Translations under genes and position numbers: made by a program
Shown here: piece by piece, positions 14,870-14,991 of the stretch
Numbering within the stretch: the first letter of the stretch is position 1
Layout: each line of letters starts with the position of its first letter
From: Candidatus Margulisiibacteriota bacterium
GTDB lineage: Bacteria; Margulisbacteria; WOR-1; O2-12-FULL-45-9
Direction of reading: 5' to 3'
NCBI GenBank assembly: GCA_034723395.1
Contig: JAYEOW010000003.1
Span: 1 to 53,943 of the forward strand
DNA: 53,943 nucleotides
The notes under the pieces: generated by a model
The model's database searches: none
The model's input: only the letters and a program-made list of their open reading frames with translations
What the model was told of the DNA's origin: nothing

Positions 14870-14886
14870 TATATATAGAAGGACGA

Positions 14887-14960
14887 CACTTTCAGCTCGC
14901 CTGTTACTGAGAGTGATCAGTTTGAATGAACCACGACAATTTAACGGGCGTGGTTTTTTT
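14887..14960 (+). promoter_or_regulatory. Structured 5' leader (attenuator-like) of the giant gene
   Basis: Hairpin cactttcag/ctgagagtg, then aaccacg/cgtggtt stem followed by a T-run, between the promoter and ATG 14992. Confidence 0.55.
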
Positions 14961-14991
14961 GTTTTAAAAGGAGATCCACTAGAGGGACAAT

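Follow-up and report, generated by a model that had tools for sequence, protein, structure and literature searches.

Judged from the sequences, the leader of an 11-kb gene in the window (the whole stretch of 53,943 nucleotides that was analysed) appears to be a genuine element of RNA-based control, so far undescribed and belonging to one class of uncultured bacteria. We consider it probable that the leader works in cis as a transcription attenuator, of a kind that one class of an uncultured phylum has conserved, and that the pairing of a hairpin loop with the downstream terminator is its antiterminator. The reading is carried by the anatomy of the element, its conservation, the covarying stem of its first hairpin (P1), the conserved complementarity between the P1 loop and the terminator, the overlap of this pairing with the terminator, and a variant class of leaders in which the complementarity is compensated.

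Anatomy of the leader in the window

The gene is an ORF of 3665 aa on the forward strand (14992-25989) that matches no Pfam family; it starts with an ATG at 14992-14994 and is preceded by a Shine-Dalgarno-like GAGGG (14982-14986). Its leader and all the features described here are encoded on the same strand. The leader lies behind a FliA/sigma-28-like promoter (14842-14870), composed of GCAAGTTT (14842-14849), a 13-nt spacer and TCGATAAT (14863-14870). The sigma-28/FliA consensus is TAAAGTTT-N11-GCCGATAA, and GCAAGTTT-N13-TCGATAAT resembles it. Two hairpins are found between the promoter motif and the start codon. P1 has a 9-bp stem (cactttcag, 14887-14895, and ctgagagtg, 14907-14915) and an 11-nt loop, ctcgcctgtta (CUCGCCUGUUA, 14896-14906). 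The second hairpin, ahead of the ORF, resembles an intrinsic terminator, with a 7-bp stem (aaccacg, 14929-14935, and cgtggtt, 14949-14955; AACCACG/CGUGGUU), a 13-nt loop and a run of seven U (T7 in the DNA, 14954-14960). The proposed antiterminator strand, cgcctgtta (14898-14906) within the P1 loop, is complementary over 9 bp, one of them G-U, to a box, UAACGGGCG (taacgggcg, 14942-14950), that spans the terminator loop and the first 2 nt of its 3′ arm, so that this alternative pairing overlaps the terminator stem. The sequences and coordinates that the first-pass annotation had given for P1, the terminator, the loop:box pairing and a further hairpin, actga/tcagt (14906-14910 / 14917-14921), are all exact to the base. 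That last hairpin, which had been suggested as an alternative disrupting P1, is present in the window; it has no counterpart in G011:C30 (contig C30 of genome G011), which holds the closest homologous leader.

The predicted energies of P1 and of the terminator are -9.4 and -7.5 kcal/mol, respectively, and the loop:box duplex, at -13.3 kcal/mol, is stronger than the terminator. The global folds are nearly isoenergetic, with -23.0 kcal/mol for P1 plus terminator vs -21.1 kcal/mol for a nested long-range fold. A simple terminator scan made no call at the leader hairpin because its loop of 13 nt exceeds the limit of 8. The run of U ends 30 nt before the ATG and no promoter-like site was called in between, so the giant gene depends on read-through. 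A possible leader peptide (ATG at 14926 to TAA at 14967, 13 codons) was considered and rejected, as it has no well-spaced ribosome site in the window and is not conserved, the frame in the G011 leader having only 4 codons. By itself the window leader is statistically unremarkable and not beyond chance (MFE z = -1.09; 22 of 200 shuffles fold equally well), and it counts as more than chance because comparative data from relatives support it.

Conservation across the class and the proposed switch

The pattern of promoter followed by TGCCTGTT was matched 39 times in 31 of the 65 genomes of the class, and its reversed control gave no match. Two of the matches were coding (ATG CCT GTT) and were dropped; in all 37 leaders kept, promoter, leader and start codon follow in this order (the start sites being predicted). 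The window leader itself was missed by this pattern because its loop starts with CGCC, and adding it gave an unbiased set of 38 leaders. A full set of 43 includes also five leaders fetched by a pattern that required ACAGGC. In all counts each species is represented by a single genome, and many of these genomes are incomplete. The layout that the first-pass annotation had read in the window, a promoter-proximal leader with a terminator-like hairpin, recurs across the class, where it consists of the FliA/sigma-28-like promoter, P1 with the loop (U)UGCCUGUU and then an AACAGGC-bearing terminator. A promoter-independent pattern (TGCCTGTT...ACAGGC...TTTTT) was found in 21 of 65 class genomes vs 4 of 81 elsewhere in the phylum, where the four matches resemble plain hairpins; its reversed control gave 4 matches in 2 genomes.

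The stem of P1 covaries, and its loop is invariant. When 43 of these hairpins were aligned without gaps, which mixes two registers (slides 0 and +1 both score high), stem pairing was 60.7% vs 45.7% after shuffling, with none of 500 shuffles as high, and the covariation score was 0.463 vs 0.237, while the loop GCCUGUU did not vary at all. A contiguous stem of at least 5 bp is found in 32 of the 38 unbiased leaders, compared with 31% when flanks are swapped. The closest homologous leader, retrieved by DNA search (G011:C30), has the same P1 and the same terminator stem, a stem that is identical also in the leader of G005:C3; its box reads UAACAGGCG in place of the window's UAACGGGCG, turning the U-G pair into U-A. 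On contig C30 of G011 (locus L099, 10480-10790, minus strand), a class A hairpin with a box-bearing terminator stands between co-directional genes with no promoter motif, and therefore the element can also act as an intercistronic attenuator.

The pairing of the P1 loop with the terminator, also proposed in the first-pass annotation, proved to be conserved class-wide. A complement of the loop of at least 7 bp, with at most one G-U, occurs within 130 nt in 31 of the 38 unbiased leaders vs 6 of 38 when the loops are reversed, and in the full set in 36 of 43, where shuffles gave 9.1 on average and 16 at most. The box is AACAGGC or a wobble variant in 31 of the 38. A script called a terminator in 31 of the 43 leaders, and the loop complement overlaps it in 29 of these; three of the 31 calls are the long-range helix itself, and the terminator counts are lower bounds because the script missed or mis-called several hairpins visible by eye. 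The box lies in the terminator loop and 3′ arm in the window, G011 and G005, and in the 5′ arm in G019, G002, G007 and G061. Its position shifts, yet the overlap stays, as expected if overlap with the terminator is what matters. Seven core loop:box pairs hold in 35-36 of the 36 leaders with an anchorable box, and the positions flanking them pair at chance level. Within this core the class A leaders show wobble changes only and no covariation, because loop and box are both invariant. The linker between P1 and box ranges from ~20 to >100 nt and is unconserved. Among the seven of 38 leaders that have no loop complement, reading by eye found some with P1 directly before the ribosome site and two in which P1 has its own U-run.

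Compensation is seen in sister leaders. Class C leaders, behind the same promoter, have the loop AGCCUGA(C) together with (U)UCAGGCU or GUCGGGUU in the terminator; the hairpin loop AGCCUGAC with a compensated box gave 8 pattern matches in 7 of 65 genomes (loci L084-L088 and L117-L124). In the orthologous leaders of G011:C31, G021:C5 and G012:C1, a switch of the loop from GCCUGA to GCCUGU is accompanied by a switch of the box from UCAGGC to ACAGGC, and therefore the cis pairing itself appears to be under selection. A further leader class with the same promoter carries the motif GCCAUCUGC(AAA), which pairs with GCAGAUGGC-like terminator boxes (G000:C22, G000:C16 and G011:C28, where G000 is the genome of the window). 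Leaders of this type are located at G000:C22:11763 and G000:C16:1892, both on the minus strand, and at loci L079-L083 and L035; one of them precedes a FliK-like gene, and the motif can also directly precede the ribosome site with no terminator. In the leaders of G059:C1, G011:C31 and G013:C9 (L123, L124 and L089) a near-perfect palindrome, CCTGCCTGCCGGCAGGCAGG, was noticed just before the ribosome sites.

For the attenuator we propose the following course of events. Transcription would start at the FliA/sigma-28-like promoter and P1 would fold first, exposing the fixed loop GCCUGUU(A). The AACAGGC-type box of the emerging terminator (here UAACGGGCG) would then be captured by the P1 loop in a kissing or pseudoknot helix; this would remove part of the weak terminator stem, and polymerase would continue into the 11-kb gene. 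Were the P1 loop occupied, or capture to fail, the terminator would form and a transcript of ~85 nt would be released. The loop:box pairing would in this way prevent termination, read-through may be the default state, as we argue from the kinetics and from the plasmid pLS20, and something would presumably mask the P1 loop. The best candidate for the signal that we can name is the complementary 3′ terminator loop of completed giant transcripts, and a loop-binding protein is the other. The invariance of both loop and box points to a further constraint, either a loop pair shared among leaders and 3′ hairpins or a sequence-specific protein; it also speaks against the attenuator reading in so far as a protein or a third RNA that recognises these sequences would account for it equally well.

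The closest published analogue that we found is the zipper-type attenuator cATT of pLS20, which is followed by a very long transcription unit, adopts the antiterminator state by default in vitro and has two nearly isoenergetic states (bioRxiv 10.1101/2025.11.24.689506). Its trigger is described as unidentified, and its most conserved upstream hairpin is suspected to recruit an unidentified protein or a countertranscript (10.1101/2025.11.24.689506). Like cATT, the window leader stands before a very long unit and has two near-isoenergetic states. The antiterminator of pLS20 is an extension of a long central stem, whereas here the pairing strand is the P1 loop and not a stem flank, which gives a kissing or pseudoknot geometry. 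Unlike the plasmid system, the one described here is chromosomal and stands behind a FliA-like promoter, its loop sequence is fixed across the whole class, and a matching loop is found in the gene's 3′ terminator.

The terminator hairpin at the 3′ end of giant genes

The first-pass annotation had overlooked this third partner. The giant gene is followed by a terminator hairpin (26011-26056, forward strand) with a 14-bp stem, a 9-nt loop, UUAACAGGC (26025-26033), and a run of eight U (26049-26056). Within the loop, UAACAGGC is complementary in 8 of 8 positions to GCCUGUUA of the P1 loop; the energy of the hairpin is -20.9 kcal/mol and that of the duplex between the two loops -12.4 kcal/mol. The same loop is carried on differing stems in the 3′ UTRs of homologs of the giant gene in G005:C3, G001:C11 and, twice, G011:C11. 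An alignment of the five sequences is 100% paired, with 5 of 10 pairs compensatory, vs 44-70% in slid controls. A covariance model of this hairpin (R1) found matches in 37 of 65 class genomes at E<=0.1, and at E<=0.001 in 28 of 65 and in none of 81 other genomes of the phylum. Each R1 match that we inspected lies just after a long or giant ORF, of 2957-4390 aa where whole, with one of 1127 aa. After some giant genes, tandem pairs of such hairpins with AACAGGC loops, ~50-80 nt apart, were observed, namely at G028:C7:24538-24624, G007:C22:45752-45865 and G011:C11:9461-9546.

A class A leader and a 3′ hairpin bracket one giant frame in all five regions that we read from end to end (G021:C1, G016:C1, G019:C2, G023:C58 and G034:C11); these frames are of 3076-3719 aa, that of G023 being split into 700+3021. 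A reverse test began at the 3′ hairpin, taking six from genomes in which the strict leader pattern had found nothing. Three of these regions are cut by contig ends; the three whose 5′ end is intact all show a promoter, P1 with the loop GCCUGU(U/A), a terminator containing the box, and an ORF, its length being 2957-4390 aa. The same bracketing was found in G005:C3 and G001:C11 and, by coordinates alone, as one-strand pairs 9.3-14.9 kb apart in G017:C2, G020:C43, G024:C21, G007:C22 and G018:C11. That the element precedes a very long gene, as in the window, is also the case in relatives. In G009:C8, the homolog of the giant gene lacks both the leader and the 3′ hairpin.

These findings bear on a possible extension of the attenuator reading that would name its signal, one that we hold to be possible and on balance doubtful, namely that the AACAGGC loop of the 3′ hairpin of finished transcripts kisses the P1 loop. 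Acting in trans, the hairpin would mask the antiterminator on nascent leaders and cause termination, as plasmid countertranscripts do; acting in cis, the kissing would join both ends of an mRNA of 10-15 kb. The complementarity of the two loops, the covarying stems and invariant loop of the 3′ hairpin, the bracketing of giant frames and the joint absence of both elements from G009:C8 all favour such communication. So does the position of the box, which is confined to the loop in 3′ hairpins, so that pairing would leave that stem closed, and invades the stem in leaders. Against it, the class C gene of G021:C5 (loop AGCCUGAC) has a 3′ loop of class A type, UUAACAGGC, and its own 5′/3′ match is only 5 bp. 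Several class A genes were also found to have no 3′ hairpin: none was found for gene B of G011:C30, although its leader is present, for the first class A genes of G016:C1, G007:C22 and G049:C17, or for three short genes. G000 has only a single leader and a single 3′ hairpin, the complementary loop lies ~10-11 kb away on the same strand, and a stable 3′ fragment is hypothetical. A k-mer scan of G000 for a trans-acting small RNA with the box or the loop returned only coding or unconvincing sites, bar the gene's own 3′ terminator, and no box with a T-run was found inside the giant ORF.

Known systems offer partial parallels. In countertranscript-driven attenuation (pT181, pIP501), loop-loop kissing with a leader hairpin decides the fate of the downstream terminator. 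The partner in these systems is an antisense RNA of the same DNA, whereas here the loop is encoded downstream and its action in trans is hypothetical; pCF10 is also named among such cases (10.1101/2025.11.24.689506). In the icaR mRNA of Staphylococcus aureus the 3′ UTR is complementary to the mRNA's own 5′ UTR, and their pairing controls translation (PMC3868564). As in that description, the 3′ end is here also complementary to its own 5′ leader. The icaR pairing is said to cover the ribosome site and to act through RNase III, whereas here the contact would be between two loops, and the hairpin loop that is targeted lies ~90 nt upstream of the start and is tied to a terminator. Abortive transcripts of T7 are short RNAs that antiterminate in trans at a hairpin-dependent intrinsic terminator (PMC2952870). 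Those are tiny free transcripts, whereas the complementary strand here is structured and in cis. The T7 transcripts reportedly antiterminate by pairing with the terminator.

Taken one step further, a two-ended RNA code may bracket the giant genes, with GCCUGUU as antiterminator and the AACAGGC 3′ loop, made only at the completion of a 9-15 kb transcript, binding GCCUGUU in trans or in cis. We think this rather unlikely. If it were true, completed transcripts would throttle further expression or mark it, so that very expensive genes would have a feedback that senses completion by RNA alone, and many-to-many use of one loop pair across the regulon would explain the frozen sequences.

The regulated genes, their setting and other readings of the leader

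The proteins encoded behind the leaders are mostly unrelated to each other, and the cassette is thus more conserved than the genes downstream. The C-terminal 399 aa of the giant protein had no match in 64 other class genomes at E<=1e-5, and the N-terminal 333 aa were therefore used for the ortholog search. They have homologs in open frames of 2.6-3.4k aa in six other genomes and three more matches in frames that are shorter (304-618 aa), with contig ends cutting at least two of them; the N-terminal ~300 aa are common to other giant proteins in the same genome family at ~30% identity. Of the N-terminal fragments behind class A leaders, 20 of 22 have no Pfam family, and no transporters or enzymes are among these genes. 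Most class A N-termini have, by eye, no hydrophobic signal-peptide stretch.

The promoter motif occurs in ~20 copies in G000 (1.68 Mb), mostly ahead of proteins without Pfam families, and in all 16 genomes of the family, with 4-15 copies each vs 0-3 in the control. It stands also ahead of a FliK-like gene and, in the window, ahead of the upstream ORFs of 768 and 1152 aa (8934-8965 and 11321-11350), and Pfam gave no match for any of these three large ORFs (768, 1152 and 3665 aa), which follow one another. The 1152-aa ORF has at its C-terminus (14560-14823) a low-complexity tail that is rich in Pro, Thr and Arg and has TTTTPT repeats at its end, and the DNA matches of this segment in other genomes are of low complexity only. 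The best FliA_WhiG match of G000 scores 135 bits, under the cut-off of 189.6 bits, yet this FliA-like sigma gene has flgI and flgB as its neighbours in the flagellar basal-body cluster. G000 encodes a flagellar-type export gate and basal body (FlhA, FlhB, FliP, FliR, FliO, FliM, FliN; FlgB, C, F, G, H, I; FliE, F, I, J), at G000:C46:20422-28960 and G000:C55:175-10786; its FliG-like ORF is only 154 aa long, with N and M domains. Profile searches of this genome, which is 97% complete, found no match for flagellin, FliW, FlgM or CsrA. Of the 65 genomes of the class, 62 have FlhA and only one has a Flagellin_N match. The flagellar apparatus may be a filament-less, flagellar-type secretion machine with the FliA-like regulon as its substrates.

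This setting is one reason to consider, tentatively, that an RNA-binding protein of the flagellar-type regulon, bound to the P1 or AACAGGC loops, decides termination and couples the genes to the state of the export apparatus, in the manner of CsrA/FliW, FlbT or YopD control. Such a protein would fit the finding that, across 13 families, GCCUGUU and AACAGGC stay strictly the same as the stems drift. It would also fit the 3′ loop of G021:C5 that does not follow the variant 5′ loop, the leaders with P1 and no terminator, and a related motif, GCCAUCUGCAAA, placed directly before ribosome sites, again with no terminator. It has to contend with the missing CsrA, FliW and FlgM matches and with the class C compensation, which shows selection on the cis pairing itself. 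No candidate protein was found; the sole RNA-binding regulator noticed in G000 is a 148-aa protein (G000:C46:48308-48754) with the unusual pairing of a MarR-type domain and an ANTAR RNA-binding domain. The ANTAR family binds paired hexaloops, and the P1 and 3′ loops are not such. In ANTAR leaders two hairpins with hexanucleotide loops stand in tandem, and the second of them overlaps the terminator; the leaders described here have one hairpin with a loop of 8-11 nt, although an ANTAR protein is nevertheless encoded in G000.

It is quite improbable that the element is not a leader at all, with the hairpin at 14929-14960 serving as terminator of the upstream 1152-aa gene, or with promoter, P1 and terminator forming a small-RNA gene. 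The stretch from the upstream stop (14823) to 14929 contains no other terminator, and the attenuated product would indeed be a compact RNA hairpin whose conserved loop is free. The order of promoter, P1, terminator, ribosome site and ATG is kept, however, before unrelated genes whatever lies upstream, there is no room or motif for a second promoter from 14960 to 14992, and in G011:C30 the element is found also between co-directional genes with no promoter of its own.

The first-pass annotation had left a choice between attenuator and riboswitch, and of the two the attenuator layout stands, while nothing points to a small-molecule riboswitch. The preQ1-I, fluoride and ZTP riboswitches are small pseudoknot switches in which a hairpin loop pairs with a downstream strand overlapping the expression platform, here a terminator, and a ligand that stabilises the P1-loop:box helix in the same way is very improbable: in spite of this general likeness and of the conservation of both pairing strands, the conserved bases form a plain Watson-Crick helix with no conserved unpaired pocket or junction, the linker is variable, the regulated genes are unrelated, mostly have no Pfam family and offer no metabolic context, and the same box occurs also in 3′ terminators. 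As that annotation had recognised, no known riboswitch class fits: Rfam covariance models gave no relevant match in the window (E<=10), in 13 homologous leaders (E<=1) or in five 3′-hairpin loci (E<=0.1).

Attenuators as such are well known. What sets the attenuator proposed here apart is a fixed-sequence hairpin loop that would serve as antiterminator, and the recurrence of the same loop pair at the 3′ end of 9-15 kb genes. Our literature search found no description of such a system, which is weak evidence, as little of the search concerned this phylum and none of it the motif sequences. Very large genes have a high incidence in several phyla, this one included, according to a preprint (10.1101/2023.11.21.568195). 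The leader marks an unexplored regulon of diverse proteins, mostly with no Pfam match, behind a FliA-like promoter, in genomes that keep a flagellar basal body and export gate and almost never a recognisable flagellin. It thereby offers a concrete, mutable handle on how bacteria control very long, costly transcripts.
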